DNA of 64,000 bases from Escherichia phage RB49. The notes beneath the pieces were generated by a model. It was given only the letters and a program-made list of their open reading frames with translations, did no database searches and was not told where the DNA came from. Of the stretch, positions 2,961 to 54,585 are shown in pieces. The translations under genes were made by a program, and so were the position numbers. Positions within the stretch are counted from its first letter, which is position 1. The number at the start of each line of letters is the position of its first letter. Location of the stretch: sequence record NC_005066.1; one strand, 5' to 3'.

Positions 2961-3527
2961 ATGGTTGAAATTCTTCCGATGAGTTCAAAATTGGAGGATA
3001 TCAGCGAGCGAGAAATCTTTGAGGTGGTGTTCTCTTATAAAGCAACGCCACCGGATGCAAATACCACATACACGATTAAAGAGTTTAAGATCAGCGAGTA
3101 TCGCCCTAATAAGGGCGTTACCGTTGAAGAAACTAAAATATCTGGTGAGTATCGGGATAGTTTTTCGCTTGGCGCGGATTCTCTTAAATATATAACGAAA
3201 GATAGAATTAAAAAATCTGCCGGAAGTTTTGATGATTTACCAGATCCAATTACCGCAGATCTATATTATTTTAACGCTCCTACACGTCTACAGGAGCTTT
3301 ATACTTATAAAGTCACCCTAACCTATATCCAATCTGTTTCAGAGTCTTCTGGTGGTTCTGGTGAAGGAAATAGTGGTGGTTCCAATAGCCGAGAGGGTGC
3401 TGGTGAAACTAATACGCCTCCGGTAGTAACCGAACACACAATAGAGAAAGTTTATACTCAAACCGTTTTTGGAAATTGGGATGTGTGGGCGCAGCAACTA
3501 AGAGATTATGTACATAGGGGTGTTTAA
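2961..3527 (+). CDS. gp5.1-like hypothetical protein with Gly/Ser-rich linker
   Basis: 188 aa ORF between gene 5 and PAAR gene; synteny only. Confidence 0.5.
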
Positions 3528-5721: not shown

Positions 5722-8700
5722 TTAAAGCGCCTAGTGTAACTAGCTTGACAATAGAAAAATTGTCTGCTAATCAGGCGTATATCACATGGGATGACGTAGG
5801 CGAAAACTTCTTTTATTTTGTGGAGTTAGCCGAAACCAGAACACGAGACGGGGAGATCATCCCCGTCGATGAGTTAAGCTGGGTAAACCTGGGATATACT
5901 GCCGAACAAAACTGGTTTGAGGATAAAAACCTTTTTCCAGAATATTATTACAAGTTTCGTGTAGCAGTAGCCGCAGAAGGATTTGAACAAAGTAAATGGG
6001 TTGAGACAGAAGAGTTTCAGACATTTAAAACAAACGCATATAATTTTTCTATGATGCGAGAGTTCAACCTTGCAAACGAGTTTATAAAGGAAAAATTTAC
6101 ATACGATAATCGAGAGTATGTCAAGTTTAATACCGACCTTATTCAAGCATCATTGATGAAGGAAGATTTTGTCTTTAGTCCTGAATATGCAAACATGACA
6201 AATATCTCAAACTATATTGTAGTTGATGAGAACTTTCATGAAATACAGGATCACATAGAAAAAGTTTGTACTGATATAAACCGCACTATGTTAGCGGAAA
6301 TGAACGGTGTTTTGTACCTTTTCGAACGGTTCCAGCCGATCGTGAAAGTGTCAAATGATAAAGGTCAATCATGGAAAGCATACAAGGCTTTTAATGACCG
6401 TGTAGGCAATCCGGTTTCCCGCACATGCGTTTATCAGTCTAAAACCACTACTTACGTTTTAGGATATGACCGAATCTTTTACGGACGACAAGCTAGCGAT
6501 ACTCGATGGAGCGCGGACGATGTTCGATTTAGTGATGATACGATCACTTTTGCAAAGGTTGGTGACGAAAACGACTTAGGGTTTGATGTTGAGGTCTTTG
6601 GTGTATTTTCCAGATTAACAGGTGACACCACAAAATACGCCGAAGCTATGGCGTGCAGTGATGACTATTTGTGGGTTGGTGCTAAAGATGTTATTCGCCG
6701 GATTCGTCTTAAGAATACTCCCGTTGATACCGTACAGGGTTCGCCTACGTTTGGAGAAAAAATATTCGATCCTGATGTTATCCGAGTAACAGGAAATGAT
6801 AAAGCCGTCATTCAGAAAATGGATGTGATCGACGGTAAATTGCTTGTATTTGTTACGGGTGAAGTTAAACAGCGTTATCAAGATCCAACTAAACCAGAAA
6901 ACGTTGTTCCGTCAGATGATGCGGGTGTATACTTAATAGGGAGTGATGGTCTGTCTTTTCAGAGAGTATTTGGCAACACTCCGCAGGAAAGGGAATATAT
7001 TCAGCACGGGTTCAGTAATATGTCAACCAATGGTGATGAGGTGTTCATAAGCCATTATAATCATCACTTCGAAAGCATTTTACCTGATCCAGAAACTGCC
7101 GCGAAATATGAATTGGGCGAAGCTGTAAAATATTCTCAGGAGCCAACTTATCTAACTGATAAGAAAATACATCAAACTACTTTCAGAGCAAGTTATGATG
7201 ATTTGCGTATTTGGGAGTTAGGACCGCAAGCGTATTATAATGAGGCTGATTATACATGGATGCGTCGAAATGGTGTTCGTGTATGGATCACAAATGATAA
7301 TCGCCCGTTGGTTGTTTATCCAGAGGTTATCTATACTCAAGAAGTTGATACATCTGGCATTCTTGACCAAAATAGGGTCAACCGAGAAGTTTATGATAAA
7401 GGGACCGTGACCTGTTATCTTAATAATGTTAAATTTGAAGGATTCAAACAATATGCATCCGGTGTAATGTTCCATAAAAACACGGGAGAGATCATAGGAT
7501 TCTATCAATTTAATTATCGTGTTCGTGATCAGGTTGGTGTATACTGGAAACCTACAAATGTAGCATTTGTTGCTGAATTGCAAAATCAGGTTCGAGAGGT
7601 TCCCTGGGTTCCTGTTCATTATGACAGAGAGCAAGATCCAGATTTGCGACCTTTACTGAATAAGATGACGCCTGATAGCTTTTTACTTGAGAACGAAAAT
7701 TTCAGAAAATTCTCTGAATATTATCTGCAATTCTTAAGCGATGGTTCAGGAACATATTATAATAAACTAAAAAATCTGATTAAAAACAAATATCCACGCG
7801 AGCAAGATGCATATGAGTATCTTTGGTCAGAGATGAACAAACGAAACATATATGCAGATAAAAACAAGCGAGATGCGGTAGTAAGATTCTTTGAATCCCG
7901 CAAATCAGATTTTTATTCCACTAAGGGCGTGGAGGCTTCTTATAAGTTCTTGTTTAAGTTACTTTATAATGAAGATGTAGAAATTGAGGTTGAATCACAA
8001 GCCGGACTAGAGTATGATATTGTTGTTAGTTCAACGAACATTGACGAGGATATCGTAGGTCGCACGATTTATACTCCAACCGGACGGGCTAACGTGACGT
8101 ATCTTGAAAGGGAATATGAAGGTGGTCGCCTACGCTGGCGAGTAACCATTCATAACCTGATCGGGCGGTTCGAAGAAGGTCAAGTGATCAAATCAGAGAA
8201 AACAGCGTTTGAAGGGATGATCCTTGTTGGTGTACGTGGTAAAGAGTTGTTGAGTAGTTCAATCGACTATATCAACCGCTCACGAAGCCAATACACCATG
8301 AAGATTAAAAGTGCATTGCCAGTTTCGCGCTATGCAAATGATGTAATGCGATTCGTTCATCCTGTCGGCTTTGGGTTTATCGGTGTTACCCTGCTTACGA
8401 TGTTCATTAACAGCGGGTTAAGCATGAAACACACAGAGACGATAATTCAATCTCTAAAAAATTATAAGTTTGACAGCGGATTGCCTAGCGTGTATCCTGA
8501 TCGGGTGGCAGACCTTGACGTTGACGGAAACATTAAGAAAGACCCGCTTACCGGAAAAGCATTATACTTAACGTCACCGACAATGGGCGAAGAGTTCCCC
8601 GTTCCTCCTGAATATGATCAGGAGAACAGCGAATTGTTCCACGGACTTAAAGCAAGCGAACGAAGATTTGCAATGAGTCCACTGTTTGACCAGTCGGCGG

Positions 8701-48390: not shown

Positions 48391-50442
48391 TTACATTTTA
48401 AATTTATCTGGCATTGCGTCTACAGATACCAGATCAGCGATAAGCTGACGTAGAGTTGCCTTATCTGCTTTCTTACGTTCGGTTTTAGCTTCGCTAATGA
48501 AGCTGGAGAAAGACAGGTCAGAAGCAGGTTTAACAACACCTTCACGGATGAATGCATCACCGTCCGCGATCATCTCGCCAGATTCTTGTAATGCTGCCAG
48601 TTCATTTTTGTTCATAATATGTGCCTCAATGTAATAAGTTTCTTGTGAATCCGTCGATGCCGTAGCACGAGTTACCGTATCAAAGGATAACACAACACCG
48701 CGAGGAAGTAAAATCTCGCATTCTTTGTAAGCAAATGCTTTGTTACCTACTGGCAAGACAGGGATGTTTTCCGCGCCAGCAATGGAGAAAGCAACATTGG
48801 CGCCACCTTCACCGCGAGAGCCAGCCATAGAATCAACACCAGCAACGGCACTAGCCACGTTTGCATTCCAGCCGCCAAAAATGTTAGGTGCAAGGGAAGT
48901 GCTCACATAGTTTTTAAAGTAAAACGCTTTTTGCTTACGTGCAGTTTCCCACATTTGCGACCGGAAGTCCATACCACGATACAGAATAGTACCCGGATCA
49001 AGTTTAACGCCATAGTTGGAGAAGGCATTATCCAGTGCATCGCACATCTTGACCAATTCTTCTGGATCTGATATGCCTTCAAACTCTTCCAGCTTGCGGT
49101 CGGTTAGGAAGTTGTTCATATTGATGTATGCTGCATCGGCATATTCGCTCAACACAAAACCTTCCGCGCCTGGCAGATCAAGATCAATATCTGCCATCAT
49201 TTCACCCATGTTGCTAGCAATTGCTTCAAACATACCGGAAGCAACATTACGTAGGGCATCGGTTTTAATCTGGGTGATATGACTACGCAGCATTTCAGCT
49301 TTTACATCTGCTGGCATAGACTGGTCTACTCGATCCATTGCCAGGGCGGTGATCTTGTTTTCGAATACTTCCTCGCTCATGATTTCTTTTAAGCGTTTGA
49401 CCGAGGCTGCGATAACTTCCGCAGACAACGGATCATATTGATCCTGAACTTTTACCAGTTCGCTTACTGCGTATTTTGCATCGGCTTCGCTTTCAAAAAT
49501 AGTACGCATGAAACCATAGCGAGTGATAATATCACTTGTCCAGTCATTCAGAGAACGGGCGGTTGAACGTTCTAAGGCTTGACGGTCAATCAGAGTATTA
49601 AACTGTTTCTTAGGTTCGGCTTCGGTGATATCTTCTTCCGGTTTAAGATTAATTTTTTCTGGATGATTCACATAGTCGCTGTTATAGGTCGCTTGAGTTT
49701 TCAGCATTTCTTCTTTAGTCAAACGAGATTTAGCCGCTACGCGTTGTTCTGCTTCCGCGTTTCGTTCTTCTTCTGACACAAGACTAGCCGCATACGCTTC
49801 ATCTTTAGTCAGAGATTCACCAGTAGCCTTAGATACCCAGCGATCACCTAAATCACTTTCTACTTTAGTGAACAAGGATTCATCAAGTTTAATCCCTTTA
49901 ATCTTATCAATCGCCATCCCGCGACGCTTGACAACAACTAAAGCGATCTTTTTGCTGGTCATTACTTCCTGCTGGAATACTTCAAACTTCGGTGTACGAC
50001 GCACCAAACGCTCTATAACGCGCTTAACCAGTTCGGTCTTACCTTTCATGCGGGATACGTTAAAACGGAACATAACAGCGTCTAATTGCGATTTACGGGC
50101 TGTTTCCATAACCACATCAAAAGCACTTGCCATGACTGCAATCGGGTTATCGCCTAGACCATTTTTAAGCTGTACAATACGACCGCTTTTGTTCATTTCG
50201 CACAGTACAACATGTGCGGTCTTGTCACCCATACGAATGATTTTAGGTGTTTTGTTGGTGAAGTTACAAAGACGGACAATCACATCTTTATCGCGTGTCT
50301 GTACTGCAAAAAGCTGTTTAGGATTCTGCTTAGGCTTTAAGCACTGTACCGGAGCAATACTGCCAAAGTTTTCTTCCTCTTCCGTCAACAGCCATTTCTC
50401 GAAAGATTCAATCATTAGATCGTCGATTTCTAAGTTAAACAT
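48391..50442 (-). CDS. alt: Alt ADP-ribosyltransferase (packaged host-takeover enzyme)
   Basis: 683 aa (T4 Alt 682 aa); motifs ILYRG, YVSTS, KECEILLPRG; position next to gene 54. Confidence 0.85.
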   Translation of the reverse strand: MFNLEIDDLMIESFEKWLLTEEEENFGSIAPVQCLKPKQNPKQLFAVQTRDKDVIVRLCNFTNKTPKIIRMGDKTAHVVLCEMNKSGRIVQLKNGLGDNPIAVMASAFDVVMETARKSQLDAVMFRFNVSRMKGKTELVKRVIERLVRRTPKFEVFQQEVMTSKKIALVVVKRRGMAIDKIKGIKLDESLFTKVESDLGDRWVSKATGESLTKDEAYAASLVSEEERNAEAEQRVAAKSRLTKEEMLKTQATYNSDYVNHPEKINLKPEEDITEAEPKKQFNTLIDRQALERSTARSLNDWTSDIITRYGFMRTIFESEADAKYAVSELVKVQDQYDPLSAEVIAASVKRLKEIMSEEVFENKITALAMDRVDQSMPADVKAEMLRSHITQIKTDALRNVASGMFEAIASNMGEMMADIDLDLPGAEGFVLSEYADAAYINMNNFLTDRKLEEFEGISDPEELVKMCDALDNAFSNYGVKLDPGTILYRGMDFRSQMWETARKQKAFYFKNYVSTSLAPNIFGGWNANVASAVAGVDSMAGSRGEGGANVAFSIAGAENIPVLPVGNKAFAYKECEILLPRGVVLSFDTVTRATASTDSQETYYIEAHIMNKNELAALQESGEMIADGDAFIREGVVKPASDLSFSSFISEAKTERKKADKATLRQLIADLVSVDAMPDKFKM

Positions 50443-50477
50443 TTTATATCCTCTAGTTGATAACCTATAAACCTATA

Positions 50478-50504
50478 TTTATGAAAAGGGGGCTTAACGC
50501 CCCC
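50478..50504 (-). terminator. intrinsic terminator (minus strand)
   Basis: hairpin GGGGGC-GTTAA-GCCCCC then TTTT on minus strand. Confidence 0.6.
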
Positions 50505-50508
50505 TTTA

Positions 50509-50721
50509 TTATAATGCACCATCGAGCAATTGCTCTAAGGTGTATCCTGAATAGTCTTTTTCAATCAGGGTATATTTTCCTACTCGTTTAATCCAGCCAC
50601 GCATTTCAACGTATTCTGCGTAGTTGATGGTGCGAGTTGTTCCATCTTCTAGCAAAGCAGTACCGATTTCGTTAATGCGGTCATAAGTTACGTCGGTAAT
50701 GATGATTTCGATGTTAGCCAT
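50509..50721 (-). CDS. hypothetical early protein (70 aa)
   Basis: ATG follows promoter cassette and AAGGAG RBS. Confidence 0.6.
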   Translation of the reverse strand: MANIEIIITDVTYDRINEIGTALLEDGTTRTINYAEYVEMRGWIKRVGKYTLIEKDYSGYTLEQLLDGAL

Positions 50722-50757
50722 TTGATACTCCTTAGTAGTTCGTTTCGGTATGGGTGT

Positions 50758-50786
50758 ATTATGATATACACCCTCTGTTATGTCAA
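50758..50786 (-). promoter_or_regulatory. early promoter cassette A (TTGACA-17-CATAAT)
   Basis: minus-strand -35 at 50786-50781, -10 at 50763-50758; -10 sits in loop of GGGTGTAT/ATACACCC hairpin. Confidence 0.65.
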
Positions 50787-50792
50787 CAACTT

Positions 50793-50972
50793 TTAGAACA
50801 TTTTTGAAATTAATTCTGCTTTGATTTCGCAGAGAACATCTAAAGATTTCTCGTCACCTGCTTTTGCGGCTTCTGTTTGCATTTTTGAAATGGCTTCAAT
50901 GTCAGTGCAATTATAAGCCGCTTGAACTTTAGCGATTGCGATGATTGCCGATTCGATGGTTAAGTGTTTCAT
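50793..50972 (-). CDS. hypothetical early protein (59 aa)
   Basis: ATG after cassette B with AGGAGA RBS; below ORF-track cutoff. Confidence 0.45.
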   Translation of the reverse strand: MKHLTIESAIIAIAKVQAAYNCTDIEAISKMQTEAAKAGDEKSLDVLCEIKAELISKMF

Positions 50973-51004
50973 GTTTGATTCTCCTTTCGTTTCGGTATGG
51001 GTGC

Positions 51005-51033
51005 ATTATAGGGGATCGGTGACCCCCTGTCAA
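51005..51033 (-). promoter_or_regulatory. early promoter cassette B (TTGACA-17-TATAAT)
   Basis: consensus hexamers; spacer is GC-rich near-palindrome. Confidence 0.7.
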
Positions 51034-51040
51034 CAACTTT

Positions 51041-51559
51041 TTAGTTATTTTTTAATTGTTCATCTTGCAATAATGCAATCACATGCTGGCGATGTTCTTC
51101 CGATTGAGACACACCGAAAAAGTTTGTTTTGTAGAAATACTCTAATCGGTCTTCTCGTGTGCTCTCTTCCATCATGATCGCGGGTAGTCCGAGATTTCGG
51201 AAACGTCGCTTTTCTGCTGGCGTAAAATCACTGTAATACAACATAGAATCATCATTACAAGCAATGCTAAACTCATCCTTCATAAAGGAGAATATTGCGT
51301 TTAAACGCTGTTTACCGTCCACGATTTCGATCTCATAGCGAGAGCCATCATCAATCTTAGCCATTGCGATAGCACCAACCGGAAAATCATTAATCAGGTT
51401 TTCGATAAACATACGTTTGTTTTCGGTGTCCCATACTAAAGGACGCTGATAATCTGGGTTCATGTTGATATAGCCATCTTCTAACCATGCTTCATAAACA
51501 GAGATAACAAAGTTTTTAGTATTGGTATAGTAACGGCGTTTAGGCGTTAAACGGTTCAT
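51041..51559 (-). CDS. DUF262-like (ParB/GmrSD N-terminal domain-like) protein
   Basis: motifs NPDYQRPLVW and IVDGKQRL; start placed at Met 51559 with AGGAGA RBS (ORF track extends to 51595). Confidence 0.6.
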   Translation of the reverse strand: MNRLTPKRRYYTNTKNFVISVYEAWLEDGYINMNPDYQRPLVWDTENKRMFIENLINDFPVGAIAMAKIDDGSRYEIEIVDGKQRLNAIFSFMKDEFSIACNDDSMLYYSDFTPAEKRRFRNLGLPAIMMEESTREDRLEYFYKTNFFGVSQSEEHRQHVIALLQDEQLKNN

Positions 51560-51560
51560 G

Positions 51561-51890
51561 TTATAGTCTCCTGAATGGATCATCACGTAAATCAATATCT
51601 TTTAAGAACTCATCCCATGAATGGCGGATATTGTTCTTAATTCTCCAGATAAGAGCAGGGATTGAACGCTCTCCCATCTGGAAGTATGGATCATATGATC
51701 CGTATGCCCAATATGCTACTACAATTCCACAATCAGCGCAATAGTATTCTATTTCACTTGCTGGCGACCAAAGTCCATCAATATGATCGGTGATCTTGCT
51801 TTCGATGTTATGGCTATGACAATCAGGGCAACGGATGCAATGACCTTGTTTATCGTAATTTGACGTTAGCGAATACTTAAACAATCTCAT
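51561..51890 (-). CDS. zinc-ribbon protein
   Basis: CIRCPDCHSH ... YYCADCG cysteine pairs; 109 aa. Confidence 0.55.
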   Translation of the reverse strand: MRLFKYSLTSNYDKQGHCIRCPDCHSHNIESKITDHIDGLWSPASEIEYYCADCGIVVAYWAYGSYDPYFQMGERSIPALIWRIKNNIRHSWDEFLKDIDLRDDPFRRL

Positions 51891-52606
51891 TATAGATCCT
51901 TATTTGCTTCAAATACTGCCTTTGCGAATCCTCGCGGGGTAAGTGACCTGATAGTCTTTGTTTTCGTTCCTTTCCCGCCTAGCTTAGAATGCTGTTTACT
52001 GTACCCTTTATTAATCTGCAAAGGTTTCTTTTCTGGCATTATAAAGCCTTGTCCGGTCCATAAGCAAGTCTTTTTCGGGTACATATCACGGGCGGCAATA
52101 TACTCAGGAAAAGTAGGATGTTTATCATCTTCCGGCAAATAACCGCCATATTCCCACGGATGGAACATATAATCAGGCTTACGCCACATGCTAGAGATAA
52201 CGCTTACAGGATTCTCTATCATGTAGGGAACTCCTATCCATTCACCCAAATAAGCGGTTATTTTAGCTGCCCTTACATCATGAACTTGAATCAATGGTCC
52301 TTGTTCTAGTTTCTTTCGTTCAAAGTGCGCAGCGCCACTAACAGCTAAATTGGTGCACGGTGGGAATGCAAAGATAATATCCGGTTTCCCCCATTCAAGG
52401 TCCATTGCTCTTTCCAGCCAGTTCAAATCAATCCAGGTGTTTACATAGGTAATGTTTGGATGTTCAAATCTGGTATTATATTTTTTGTATGTACCGTGGT
52501 CGCCATCGTCAGCATTAAAGCAGATCACCTTATGACCCGCTTTAGCCCATTCTAACCCCATTATCCCCGACCCGTCAAAGTTGCAGAATATTAATTTTTG
52601 TTTCAT
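51890..52606 (-). CDS. C5-pyrimidine methyltransferase-like protein lacking a target-recognition domain
   Basis: motif I-like FDGSGIMGLEWAKAG, PC motif FAFPPCTNLAVSG, ENV-like YMIENPVSV; only 238 aa. Confidence 0.45.
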   Translation of the reverse strand: MKQKLIFCNFDGSGIMGLEWAKAGHKVICFNADDGDHGTYKKYNTRFEHPNITYVNTWIDLNWLERAMDLEWGKPDIIFAFPPCTNLAVSGAAHFERKKLEQGPLIQVHDVRAAKITAYLGEWIGVPYMIENPVSVISSMWRKPDYMFHPWEYGGYLPEDDKHPTFPEYIAARDMYPKKTCLWTGQGFIMPEKKPLQINKGYSKQHSKLGGKGTKTKTIRSLTPRGFAKAVFEANKDL

Positions 52607-52848
52607 ATACGCCCCTTTAATCCAACACAGATTTTAGAAGGTTCTTTGCCGTGCCACATTAAGTAAAGTCCGTTAATGCGGCCTTGTTTTGTATATGATT
52701 CTTTTCTGATCTTCTTATAGTGTCGTGTTTCCTCTACCGATTGTTTAGAATACCAATCATAAAGGAAGAGGAACAAAGGCCAACCATTAGCAACCTTAAT
52801 GCAGTTATTCAAAAATTCCTTATTTCGTTTAATTAATTTTCTTTTCAC
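52603..52848 (-). CDS. hypothetical protein (81 aa)
   Basis: start overlaps upstream stop; operonic. Confidence 0.5.
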   Translation of the reverse strand: MKRKLIKRNKEFLNNCIKVANGWPLFLFLYDWYSKQSVEETRHYKKIRKESYTKQGRINGLYLMWHGKEPSKICVGLKGRI

Positions 52849-53096
52849 GCTGCCCCCATTGGTTTGATAGTAACAGAATCTAAAAGACCTTTGTTAGCCA
52901 GTTCGCGGCAAGTTTTCAGATCCGCAACTTCCCAGCCAGCCGCAATCAGGTTATCAATGAGGCTGTTAGCAACTTCTTCGCTCATGAAAGAGCACTGTTT
53001 GCCGATGGTGTAGCGTACACGCTGTAATTTCAGTTTACGGAAGCCTTTAACGTTCAGGTCTTTAGCGATTTTCTTTGCGGTTTCGATGTTAGCCAT
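52845..53096 (-). CDS. hypothetical early protein (83 aa), first gene of five-gene operon
   Basis: ATG GCT AAC ATC start directly after cassette C. Confidence 0.55.
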   Translation of the reverse strand: MANIETAKKIAKDLNVKGFRKLKLQRVRYTIGKQCSFMSEEVANSLIDNLIAAGWEVADLKTCRELANKGLLDSVTIKPMGAA

Positions 53097-53136
53097 TGTT
53101 TGATTCTCCTAAGTGGTATCTCGTCTTGATGGTTGT

Positions 53137-53165
53137 ATTGTAGGGGAGTTATCCTCCCCTGTCAA
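53137..53165 (-). promoter_or_regulatory. early promoter cassette C (TTGACA-17-TACAAT)
   Basis: spacer is hairpin GGGGAG-loop-CTCCCC. Confidence 0.6.
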
Positions 53166-53179
53166 CACTTTTTATAAAA

Positions 53180-53347
53180 TTATTTGTTAATTTCTGGTGC
53201 GTTGCTAGGATAGTAACCTTCTTTAACTCCGAGGTATTTCGCAACCATCCCTACAATCTTCTGTGCTACTACAATGTCAAATTTCAGATAATCTTCGCCG
53301 TGGGTTTCAACGATATATGCTTCACATGCTGCTTTAGTCTCGAACAT
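53180..53347 (-). CDS. small hypothetical protein (55 aa), duplicate copy 1
   Basis: about 85 percent nt identity to 57506-57673; ORF track entry 53284-53490 reads on through the promoter. Confidence 0.5.
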   Translation of the reverse strand: MFETKAACEAYIVETHGEDYLKFDIVVAQKIVGMVAKYLGVKEGYYPSNAPEINK

Positions 53348-53380
53348 TTTGATTCTCCTATTTCGTTTCGGTATGTGTGT

Positions 53381-53409
53381 ATTATAGGGGATCTCCCGAT
53401 CCCCGTCAA
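53381..53409 (-). promoter_or_regulatory. early promoter cassette D (TTGACG-17-TATAAT)
   Basis: spacer hairpin GGGGATC-loop-GATCCCC. Confidence 0.6.
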
Positions 53410-53422
53410 CAACTTTTTTAGA

Positions 53423-53899
53423 TTATTTGCACCACACTGTAATTTTCTTATCATGTTGGTAGTGAATCCATCGAATATCATCTTTATCAATCATGACAGT
53501 AACATACCCATTTACTAGTGATTTGTCAAAACGGTTATGTAACAGTGCAATATATTGAAAGAATGGTTCTTTTGTATTTGAATATATTCCCTTACCATCA
53601 AACGTCATGACATTTTTGTGAACTTTAAATTCATTACGAAGAACAGCCGTCATTGTCCCGTCTTCATTAGTTTTGAGTTTTAATTCGGATTCTTTGTAAA
53701 AATATGCGTCACGGGCTTTACTTTCTTCCCCGTCTTGTACTCTTACTTCACTAGCATAATCACACTGATAGGTCTTATCTACATTTTCGATCTTTTCTTG
53801 TGTCATATCAAAAAGCGGTGCGACCTTTTTCTTGGCCGCGTGTGCTACGTTGGTCATGGACAGTGCTGCAACAACCGCAATAGCAATAATCTTCTTCAT
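53423..53899 (-). CDS. secreted/periplasmic protein with N-terminal signal peptide
   Basis: MKKIIAIAVVAALSMTNVAHA signal peptide; 158 aa. Confidence 0.6.
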   Translation of the reverse strand: MKKIIAIAVVAALSMTNVAHAAKKKVAPLFDMTQEKIENVDKTYQCDYASEVRVQDGEESKARDAYFYKESELKLKTNEDGTMTAVLRNEFKVHKNVMTFDGKGIYSNTKEPFFQYIALLHNRFDKSLVNGYVTVMIDKDDIRWIHYQHDKKITVWCK

Positions 53900-53929
53900 A
53901 GTATTCTCCTTTTGTTTTGTGTTGGGAGT

Positions 53930-53958
53930 ATCTTAGCGACACTCCCGTTATTTTTCAA
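53930..53958 (-). promoter_or_regulatory. early promoter cassette E (TTGAAA-17-TAAGAT)
   Basis: weaker hexamers; hairpin GGGAGT/ACTCCC overlaps -10. Confidence 0.45.
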
Positions 53959-53964
53959 ATCTTT

Positions 53965-54246
53965 TTATTCGTGATTAGTTTCGATGTTGTGCATTTTGCA
54001 CCAGTTCAACCAATCGCCCAGATCTTGATAGTTGATGCTTTTATCTGCTGCCATCGTTTTTGTCTTGATACCCATATGTGCGTTATGAGTAAGCATTTTT
54101 ACAGTGAACTCAATTTTATCACCTTTAGCTTTAACATCAACCAGTTTGGTCCACTGGCTACCAGCGCCGCGAATGTTCATACCAACGATGTTTCCGATGT
54201 ATGCTTCTTTGTTTTTCAGGATTTCGGTTGCTTTGATGAATTTCAT
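53965..54246 (-). CDS. hypothetical early protein (93 aa)
   Basis: ATG after cassette F. Confidence 0.55.
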   Translation of the reverse strand: MKFIKATEILKNKEAYIGNIVGMNIRGAGSQWTKLVDVKAKGDKIEFTVKMLTHNAHMGIKTKTMAADKSINYQDLGDWLNWCKMHNIETNHE

Positions 54247-54279
54247 TTTTGATTCTCCAGTTCGTTTCGGTATGGGTGT

Positions 54280-54308
54280 ATTATGCTATGTTCTTACTTT
54301 GGTGTCAA
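54280..54308 (-). promoter_or_regulatory. early promoter cassette F (TTGACA-17-CATAAT)
   Basis: consensus -35, conserved leader ACACCCATACCGAAACGA. Confidence 0.65.
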
Positions 54309-54315
54309 CAACTTT

Positions 54316-54585
54316 TTAGATATTTTCAGAAATAAATTTTAAAACTTGACGTAAATGTTTCTCATCTTTGATAGTCGCCGGAAGTTCTTCTTTTACTTCC
54401 TGTGCAAGATAGATATTTCCGTTCCAAGTGAAAGATCCGTCTTCGTTTACGCGATAGCTGAACATCCACTCGCAATCATTTTCGATTTCATATACACACA
54501 GAAGGGTGTAATCGTTAAAGCTAGTGATTTCAAGGTCGAAGCCGTGACGTTTTGCAAAGTTGGTAGTGGTTTTAGTCAGTGCCAT
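54316..54585 (-). CDS. hypothetical early protein (89 aa)
   Basis: ATG after cassette G. Confidence 0.55.
   Translation of the reverse strand: MALTKTTTNFAKRHGFDLEITSFNDYTLLCVYEIENDCEWMFSYRVNEDGSFTWNGNIYLAQEVKEELPATIKDEKHLRQVLKFISENI

Follow-up and report, generated by a model that had tools for sequence, protein, structure and literature searches.

A PeSL-bounded operon of Escherichia phage RB49 with a predicted compact Dcm-like methyltransferase and a stand-alone DUF262 protein

Accessory open reading frames (ORFs) in the hyperplastic regions of phages RB49 and phi1 are flanked by promoter-early stem-loop (PeSL) elements and shuffled by recombination (PMC2839356). A PeSL combines a sigma70-like early promoter with a polyG/polyC stem-loop; its promoter is strong and early, and its stem-loop terminates transcription experimentally (PMC2839356). 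Here we analyse a 64,000-nt stretch of Escherichia phage RB49 (NC_005066.1, hereafter the window), in which five minus-strand ORFs fill positions 53096-51041 between two such elements. We consider it likely, from sequence, structure models and studied relatives, that this is an immediate-early unit in which a compact Dcm-like methylase is combined with unrelated accessory genes.

Two of the predicted products have described relatives. The first, a 238 amino acid (aa) protein, resembles the Dcm of phage K42 (KarlJaspers-type), whose 711-bp gene was disrupted or potentially disrupted in all four phage escapers of retron Ec86 (10.1101/2023.08.16.553469). Expression of K42 Dcm raised 5-methylcytosine (5mC) in the multicopy single-stranded DNA (msDNA) of the retron, as seen by liquid chromatography coupled to mass spectrometry (LC-MS), and a C82A/E128A/K175A/K176A mutant did not; the defence was lost when a CCTGG site in the msDNA was changed, and a model of the enzyme superposes on DNMT3A (10.1101/2023.08.16.553469). 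Later peer-reviewed papers take this result as established. The second, of 172 aa, belongs with DUF262, a domain defined by the motifs QRxxxW, DGxQR and FxxxN (PMC12065111).

A five-gene unit between two cassettes

The operon and its flanking cassettes comprise the following features:

53118..53195, minus strand: upstream PeSL cassette (promoter scan, exact pattern, repeat family, folding, published description)
52845..53096, minus strand: gene 1, 83 aa (phrog_14908, E = 5e-59, full length)
52603..52848, minus strand: gene 2, 81 aa, GTG start (phrog_7065, E = 7e-38)
51890..52606, minus strand: gene 3, 238 aa, predicted compact Dcm-like C5-cytosine DNA methyltransferase (phrog_757, E = 7e-90)
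51561..51890, minus strand: gene 4, 109 aa, putative zinc-ribbon protein (phrog_2993, E = 5e-34)
51041..51559, minus strand: gene 5, 172 aa, stand-alone ParB/DUF262 domain protein (Pfam GmrSD_N, E = 4.8e-20)
50968..51040, minus strand: downstream PeSL cassette (promoter scan, exact pattern, repeat families D2, D3, D4 and D6)

In the upstream cassette an AT-rich stretch accompanies a -35 box (TTGACA, 53165-53160) and a -10 box (TACAAT, 53142-53137), whose spacer holds a GGGGAG/CTCCCC stem-loop. The promoter ahead of gene 1 thus reads TTGACA-GGGGAGGATAACTCCCC-TACAAT (17-nt spacer, 53165-53137) and agrees with the sigma70 consensus at 11 of 12 positions in the promoter scan; an AGGAG ribosome-binding site follows the cassette at 53110-53106. 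Its stem-loop has a folding energy of -19.4 kcal/mol (z = -5.3), and the cassette belongs to a repeat family of eight copies. Right behind the stop codon of gene 5 lies the second promoter, TTGACA-GGGGGTCACCGATCCCC-TATAAT (17-nt spacer, 51033-51005), with its -35 box at 51033-51028, its -10 box at 51010-51005 and a GGGGGTC/GATCCCC stem-loop between them. All 12 consensus positions are kept here, and the stem-loop folds moderately (-12.9 kcal/mol, z = -1.3). The exact promoter/stem-loop pattern matches three times in the window, at both ends of the operon and in a third copy, and never in 100 shuffles. Less exact copies, grouped in repeat families, number at least 10 between 46 and 64 kb; none of them is inside the operon.

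Both cassettes have what characterizes a PeSL: a consensus sigma70 promoter with a G/C stem-loop, present in repeated copies across the hyperplastic region on either side of accessory ORFs. An earlier sequence-only reading of this DNA had a "cassette C" drive the operon; that role is likely, with a predicted promoter and stem-loop at both ends, and the cassette itself proves to be the published PeSL element, described in 2010. By analogy with the published function, host sigma70 RNA polymerase would start at the upstream PeSL right after infection and the five translationally coupled accessory genes would be expressed, until the next PeSL attenuates and then restarts transcription. The downstream PeSL is predicted to do both, probably terminating the operon's transcript and initiating that of the next unit.

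The five ORFs have end-to-end matches to PHROG families, with E values from 5e-34 to 7e-90, and are therefore real genes rather than chance ORFs. The sequence across their junctions shows GTGA, ATGA and TAATG overlaps and a single 1-nt gap with GGAG ahead of it, in agreement with the overlapping or abutting stop and start codons first described; the 172 aa of gene 5 are counted from the ATG after this GGAG ribosome-binding site. Since no copy of the cassette occurs between the two promoters, the five genes form one cassette-bounded unit. Inside it, promoter-like sites (14 against 10.7 expected) and terminator-like sites (4 against 2.6 expected) occur at chance frequency. A permissive Rfam scan of 50000-54500 on both strands gave nothing above chance, and four of the five proteins have no match in NCBIfam.

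The source phage is a Krischvirus, an RB49-like relative of T4, and over the 3 kb round the operon more than 50 deposited phage genomes match it with 97-98% identity. The genes themselves are 97-99% identical to deposited Krischvirus genes with annotations already in place: gene 3 is labelled "Dcm", "putative C-5 cytosine DNA methylase" or "DNA methyltransferase" in several genomes, and gene 5 "DUF262 domain protein" in one. This is an ordinary, already annotated accessory operon in the hyperplastic region just upstream of alt.

Some side observations concern the surroundings. The sequence M-A-N-I-E begins the first genes after two different PeSL cassettes (53082-53096 and 50707-50721, both on the minus strand), and repeat families D8 and D9 extend the PeSL similarity into the first codons of the downstream ORF; the mobile cassette may include the start of that ORF. 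The alt gene is found two small PeSL units downstream of the operon and encodes an Alt-like RNA polymerase ADP-ribosyltransferase of 683 aa (48391-50442, minus strand; phrog_802, E = 7e-180; Pfam ADPrib_exo_Tox).

The predicted methyltransferase and its substrate

The 238 aa protein carries the motifs FDGSG (residue 10), PPCT (82, with Cys84), ENP (131), WRK (141), YPKK (176) and LTPRG (222), and the phrog_757 profile covers its residues 1-237. A word-indexed search found more than 7,300 homologs, nearly all of 225-250 aa, and an exhaustive search 1,139 clusters at 50% identity, mostly of 210-260 aa. The family occurs in 1,519 of 50,697 phage records, in Drexlerviridae, Dhillonvirus, Webervirus, Vequintavirus and others. 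Across 59 diverse members Cys84, E131, N132 and P133 are invariant.

Searches of the PDB by sequence, with the single protein and two family profiles, gave no significant match (M.HaeIII, E = 0.3-1.1; 8yf3, E = 0.64), so the relationship to C5-methyltransferases was established by comparison of folds. The AlphaFold2 model is of high confidence (predicted local distance difference test, pLDDT, 94.1; predicted template-modelling score, pTM, 0.91), and its top Foldseek matches are the catalytic domains of DNMT3A/B (E ~1e-6), with M.HhaI also matched. The model combines a Rossmann fold with motif I FxGxG, the Pro-Cys of motif IV and the Glu of motif VI. Fold and motifs together place the protein, at the level of prediction, among the compact C5-cytosine DNA methyltransferases of phages, a known family. 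This bears out the C5-methyltransferase-like character and the catalytic Cys that the sequence-only reading had pointed out: FDGSG, PPCT and ENP are present, the predicted structure leads to methyltransferases, nearest DNMT3A/B, and Cys84 is kept.

The same reading had held the protein too short for a target-recognition domain (TRD). Such a length is normal for the family, and about 80 residues lie between WRK, which is motif VIII-like, and LTPRG, which is motif IX-like. Within this region residues 143-190 are the best-conserved stretch of the protein, 73% identical to the homolog of phage tonijn against 52% for the catalytic core, while loop 191-208 is variable (29%). DNMT3A/B are themselves C5-methyltransferases with small recognition regions; by analogy, a compact recognition region would sit in these ~80 residues.

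The 238 aa protein and the Dcm of phage KarlJaspers Bas06 share 55% identity over the full length (E = 3e-92), and the identity to the tonijn Dcm is the same (E = 1e-94). The gene for the "Dcm-like C5 cytosine methyltransferase" of Bas06 measures 711 bp and its product has the published residues C82, E128, K175 and K176 at exactly those positions; these residues of the KarlJaspers/K42-type Dcm align with C84, E131, K178 and K179 here. The 238 aa protein would accordingly be an S-adenosylmethionine-dependent C5-cytosine DNA methyltransferase, the only product of the operon with an assignable activity. From the conserved catalytic residues, the fold and the tested homolog we infer that Cys84 of PPCT would attack C6 of a flipped-out cytosine, the methyl group being transferred to C5, as in all C5-methyltransferases.

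A methylase had been thought unexpected in a T-even-like genome. That expectation does not hold for this lineage: the near-identical Krischvirus TB34 has canonical cytosines, with no bulk modification or non-canonical base detected by high-performance liquid chromatography-mass spectrometry (HPLC-MS) (PMC13390438), and it carries the same operon. As TB34 DNA shows no bulk modification, the activity of the enzyme would be sparse and site-specific. Methylation of a dense motif such as CpG would affect about one cytosine in four and would not have escaped detection. There are 26 CCWGG sites in the 64 kb, against 53 +/- 7 in dinucleotide-preserving shuffles; their methylation would mark ~0.2% of the cytosines and would be indistinguishable from methylation by the host Dcm. 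The target is probably a sparse specific site, CCWGG or close to it. Methylation of such a site would protect the unmodified-cytosine phage DNA from the cognate restriction enzymes, with the side effect that the methylase is a potential trigger of retron Ec86/Eco1.

Other words are biased as well over the whole window (1-64000). GGCC is found 24 times against 108 +/- 11 in shuffles and CCSGG 18 times against 43 +/- 6, and GATC is enriched, with 389 against 263 +/- 15. That palindromic sites are depleted agrees with restriction-site avoidance in a phage whose cytosines are unmodified.

Phage SAP was reported as fully cytosine-modified, with hydroxymethyl and glucosyl cytosines, and TB34, 99.96% identical, as unmodified (PMC13390438). 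In the 8 kb round the operon all five coding sequences are identical in the two phages, which rules out the operon as the cause of this difference. In SAP the PeSL cassette just downstream of the DUF262 gene is duplicated in tandem (79 bp; SAP locus 3076-3154; window ~50968-51040); otherwise these 8 kb differ by 1-nt indels, five of them outside the operon and a further one where the alignment ends.

These data bear on an alternative put forward by the sequence-only reading, in which the 238 aa protein, taken as a catalytic scaffold without a TRD, serves a non-methyl base modification or acts on RNA and forms one module with the zinc-ribbon and DUF262 proteins. It could draw on the shortness of the protein, on its score below the Pfam threshold and on the modified cytosines of SAP. 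The reported product of the tested homolog, a member of the same family, is nevertheless 5mC in DNA; the motif VIII-IX region is present and well conserved; no non-canonical base was detectable in TB34, whose operon matches that of SAP; and the gene trio is not conserved outside the genus, as described below. We regard this alternative, whether as a scaffold or as RNA or other base modification, as largely refuted and very improbable.

A different question is whether the methylase acts mainly on the host, in takeover or in interference with host systems, with protection of phage DNA secondary or absent. The unit has a host-type immediate-early promoter that would act before phage DNA replication, it lies beside alt, a host-takeover gene, CCWGG is depleted in the phage genome, and the tested homolog methylates host-encoded DNA (msDNA), its authors having remarked on the 'toxicity of Dcm itself' on overexpression (10.1101/2023.08.16.553469). 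Self-protection, however, needs early expression equally, and overexpression toxicity is the only host phenotype on record. Site depletion together with a methylase is moreover a common double anti-restriction strategy. A mainly host-directed role therefore seems to us rather unlikely, and we retain sparse methylation with protection of phage DNA as the preferred reading.

The stand-alone DUF262 protein and the independence of the genes

The 172 aa protein is DUF262-like, as had been noted: it scores 73 bits with Pfam GmrSD_N (cut-off 33.2) and contains QRPLVW (38), DGKQR (81) and FYKTN (142), all invariant in 47 homologs. Its best PADLOC match is Menshen NsnA (E = 5.5e-20). A profile of the family leads to the solved structures 9jfl, BrxU (7p9k) and SspE, and the AlphaFold2 model (pLDDT 94.8) matches the fold of ParB, Noc and PadC N-terminal domains and of BrxU. 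The chain is wholly accounted for by the ParB-like domain and terminal helices; no second Pfam domain, DUF1524/HNH nuclease or extra DNA-binding domain was found in it. Without a nuclease or an additional DNA-binding domain the protein is not a GmrSD enzyme, and a type IV restriction enzyme of this type was rejected for lack of the C-terminal DUF1524/HNH domain.

Short proteins of this stand-alone type, 160-190 aa long, constitute a widespread family in their own right, with members in T4-like phages of Enterobacter, Yersinia, Pectobacterium, Pantoea and Morganella as well as in enterobacterial prophages; one member lies between recT and xis/int of a Salmonella lambdoid prophage. A word-indexed search and a single-sequence scan of IMG/VR gave only close relatives, and a three-sequence profile was needed to reach the others. 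With its three motifs intact, the 172 aa protein would provide a nucleotide-binding ParB/DUF262 domain; we take it to be a putative early accessory protein that binds or hydrolyses nucleoside triphosphates (NTPs) and acts on DNA or on a host factor.

For the 109 aa protein the zinc ribbon stays putative. CxxC motifs and five Cys residues (18, 21, 24, 51 and 54) are present, all five kept in the 45%-identical homolog of phage 9g, whereas the Pfam and NCBIfam zinc-ribbon profiles match below threshold (best Pfam match Zn_Ribbon_TF, E = 5.6e-4). The 83 aa and 81 aa proteins are basic (isoelectric points 9.5 and 10.1) and belong to no Pfam or NCBIfam family; the GTG start of the 81 aa gene overlaps the preceding stop in the GTGA junction. 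Residues 43-75 of the 83 aa protein weakly resemble a single helical hairpin of the pentatricopeptide repeat (PPR) type. The matches are designer pentatricopeptide proteins, and the whole-sequence E value of 9e-10 is inflated by the repeats of the targets, no single stretch passing. The same residues also resemble the C-terminal region of the PADLOC RT_UG35 model (E = 2.6e-5).

The five genes had been read as a nucleic-acid modification or sensing module, and the trio of methylase, zinc-ribbon and DUF262 genes was searched for in other phages. Around diverse members of the methylase family (80 IMG/VR loci, up to 6 kb on each side), no homolog of the remaining four proteins is encoded at 79 of the loci; the eightieth belongs to another Krischvirus, without the 81 aa gene. 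In phage records the methylase is found 1,519 times, the DUF262 protein 299 times and the zinc-ribbon protein 91 times; about 55 Krischvirus records are common to them, and the taxonomic profiles otherwise differ. RB16 and KP27 have a DUF262 gene with no methylase or zinc-ribbon gene nearby. Zinc-ribbon homologs, which include those of Nonagvirus and Proteus phages, were seen with no methylase or DUF262 gene nearby, that of phage 9g lying among replication genes; phage tonijn has the methylase alone. The trio is thus not conserved outside the genus, and the module does not survive the comparison.

Within the genus, too, the content of the operon varies. In phage kaaroe an additional ORF, of 59 aa, separates genes 4 and 5 (kaaroe locus 1661-1840), and in the IMG/VR Krischvirus contig L007 the 81 aa gene is missing (locus 5822-6001) and hence dispensable. 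A conserved pair of zinc-ribbon and DUF262 genes was also considered and rejected: the 109 aa gene found upstream of the DUF262 homolog in RB16 shows no relationship to the zinc-ribbon protein (E = 12), and the upstream neighbours of the DUF262 genes in RB16 and the Salmonella prophage contain no CxxC motif. The simplest reading is that the five are independent accessory genes gathered in one PeSL unit; PeSL-mediated shuffling would have brought them together, rather than a function in one machine.

As a separate observation, in the NudE-linked contexts of T4-like phages (RB16, KP27 and Pantoea phage Phynn) a protein of the phrog_10932/phrog_15764 type is encoded after the DUF262 gene, either immediately or with one gene in between (contigs L005, 3504-3812; L094, 3504-4418; L098, 4984-5970). 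This protein, absent from the window, may be a lineage-specific partner of the DUF262 gene.

Several points weigh against the account given here. Pfam DNA_methylase (PF00145) reaches only 13.2 bits with the 238 aa protein, below its cut-off of 22, and over residues 10-93; NCBIfam has no match for it. Among the 59 diverse family members PF00145 attains E <= 0.01 in five (best 1.3e-6), and the curated model covers this compact clade poorly. The link to the K42 enzyme was made through Bas06, by matching residue numbers and a matching gene length of 711 bp. The inactive control in the published work carries four substitutions rather than one at the Cys alone, and the target sequence of the family has so far been inferred from msDNA mutants rather than mapped. 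E. coli MG1655 has its own Dcm, and the little 5mC in msDNA despite this enzyme suggests that the site or substrate preference of the phage enzyme may differ from that of the host Dcm. In the retron study msDNA was low in 5mC without the phage enzyme (10.1101/2023.08.16.553469). Lastly, the role proposed for the 172 aa protein is generic, and a DNA methyltransferase lies within ~1 kb of a short DUF262 gene in three of nine contexts (contig L089, 5001-6455; contig L095, 1396-3516; window, 51041-52606), the other six having none.

This last count is the starting point of another explanation, in which the DUF262 protein and the methylase cooperate. The former could be a decoy or dominant-negative form against GmrSD/BrxU-type type IV enzymes that would otherwise attack 5mC-marked phage DNA; in another version, the ParB-like protein loads or targets the methylase, as is thought for ParB-like domains fused to phage amino-methyltransferases. 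The two genes share an operon, one gene apart, DUF262 domains sense modified DNA in GmrSD, SspE and BrxU, and BrxU cleaves 5mC DNA; the methyltransferases of the three contexts come from different families, phrog_757 here, phrog_954 in the Salmonella prophage and phrog_799 in an Erwinia phage. Yet a DUF262 gene is missing from the 6 kb on either side of the Dcm-like gene in 79 of the 80 loci, and the nine DUF262 contexts are a small sample, assembled post hoc after the idea had arisen, so that three of nine is too weak for a linkage to be claimed; the association may be loose or due to chance. Invariant NTP-binding motifs are also more to be expected of an active enzyme or a switch than of a decoy without activity, and BrxU did not cut TB34 DNA (PMC13390438), which gives little sign of a type IV threat. 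Cooperation of this kind appears quite unlikely to us. We are similarly doubtful of its general form, that short stand-alone ParB/DUF262 proteins, a widespread family of phage early accessory genes, are partners of phage DNA methyltransferases; if it were true, genes 3 and 5 would be a counter-defence pair.

Read as a PeSL unit of independent genes, the operon carries little weight as a discovery: its genes are already annotated, a homolog of the methylase has been tested and the cassette has long been described. Its residual interest lies in the stand-alone DUF262 family, which is common in phages. In addition, RB49-like phages, which are present in phage therapy collections, would bring a likely trigger of retron Ec86/Eco1 and a likely anti-restriction methylase, which could affect host range.

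Comparison with known systems

The cassettes come from the same genus as the PeSLs of RB49 and phi1 (Arbiol et al. 2010; Comeau et al. 2014) and have the same architecture: an AT-rich stretch, a sigma70 promoter with a stem-loop between -35 and -10, a Shine-Dalgarno sequence and a start codon. They likewise occur in many copies in a hyperplastic region beside accessory ORFs, and there is no material difference between the two. The unit itself holds five genes, against one or two in most neighbouring PeSL units of the window.

With the classical type II C5-methyltransferases (M.HhaI, M.HaeIII and E. coli Dcm; PF00145) the 238 aa protein has in common the Rossmann fold that binds S-adenosylmethionine and the order of motif I FxGxG, motif IV PC with the catalytic Cys and the ENV-like triplet of motif VI. 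It is ~90-230 residues shorter, has PPCT for GFPCQ and ENP for ENV, and contains a compact conserved insert of ~80 residues in place of a large divergent TRD. Unlike them it stays below the Pfam gathering score, and it is structurally nearer to DNMT3A/B than to M.HhaI.

The K42/KarlJaspers Dcm, trigger of retron Ec86 (Retron-Eco1), belongs to the same family and is of nearly the same length (236 against 238 aa). Both have the same motif order and DNMT3A as closest structural neighbour, and both are encoded by single orphan genes with no restriction partner. K42/KarlJaspers is a Drexlerviridae siphovirus, whereas the 238 aa protein comes from a T4-like member of the Straboviridae; the 45% divergence from the KarlJaspers Dcm is concentrated in loop 191-208. 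The gene analysed here is embedded in a five-gene PeSL unit, unlike that of K42/KarlJaspers, and activity has been assayed only for the K42-type homolog.

Finally, GmrSD, BrxU, SspE and Menshen NsnA contain the ParB/DUF262 domain with the three motifs also found in the 172 aa protein. Those proteins range from 385 to ~800 aa, whereas the 172 aa protein is the bare N-terminal domain, devoid of the DUF1524/HNH nuclease and ParBDB DNA-binding domains of the group. They are products of host defence islands; their short counterpart is the product of a phage early accessory gene.

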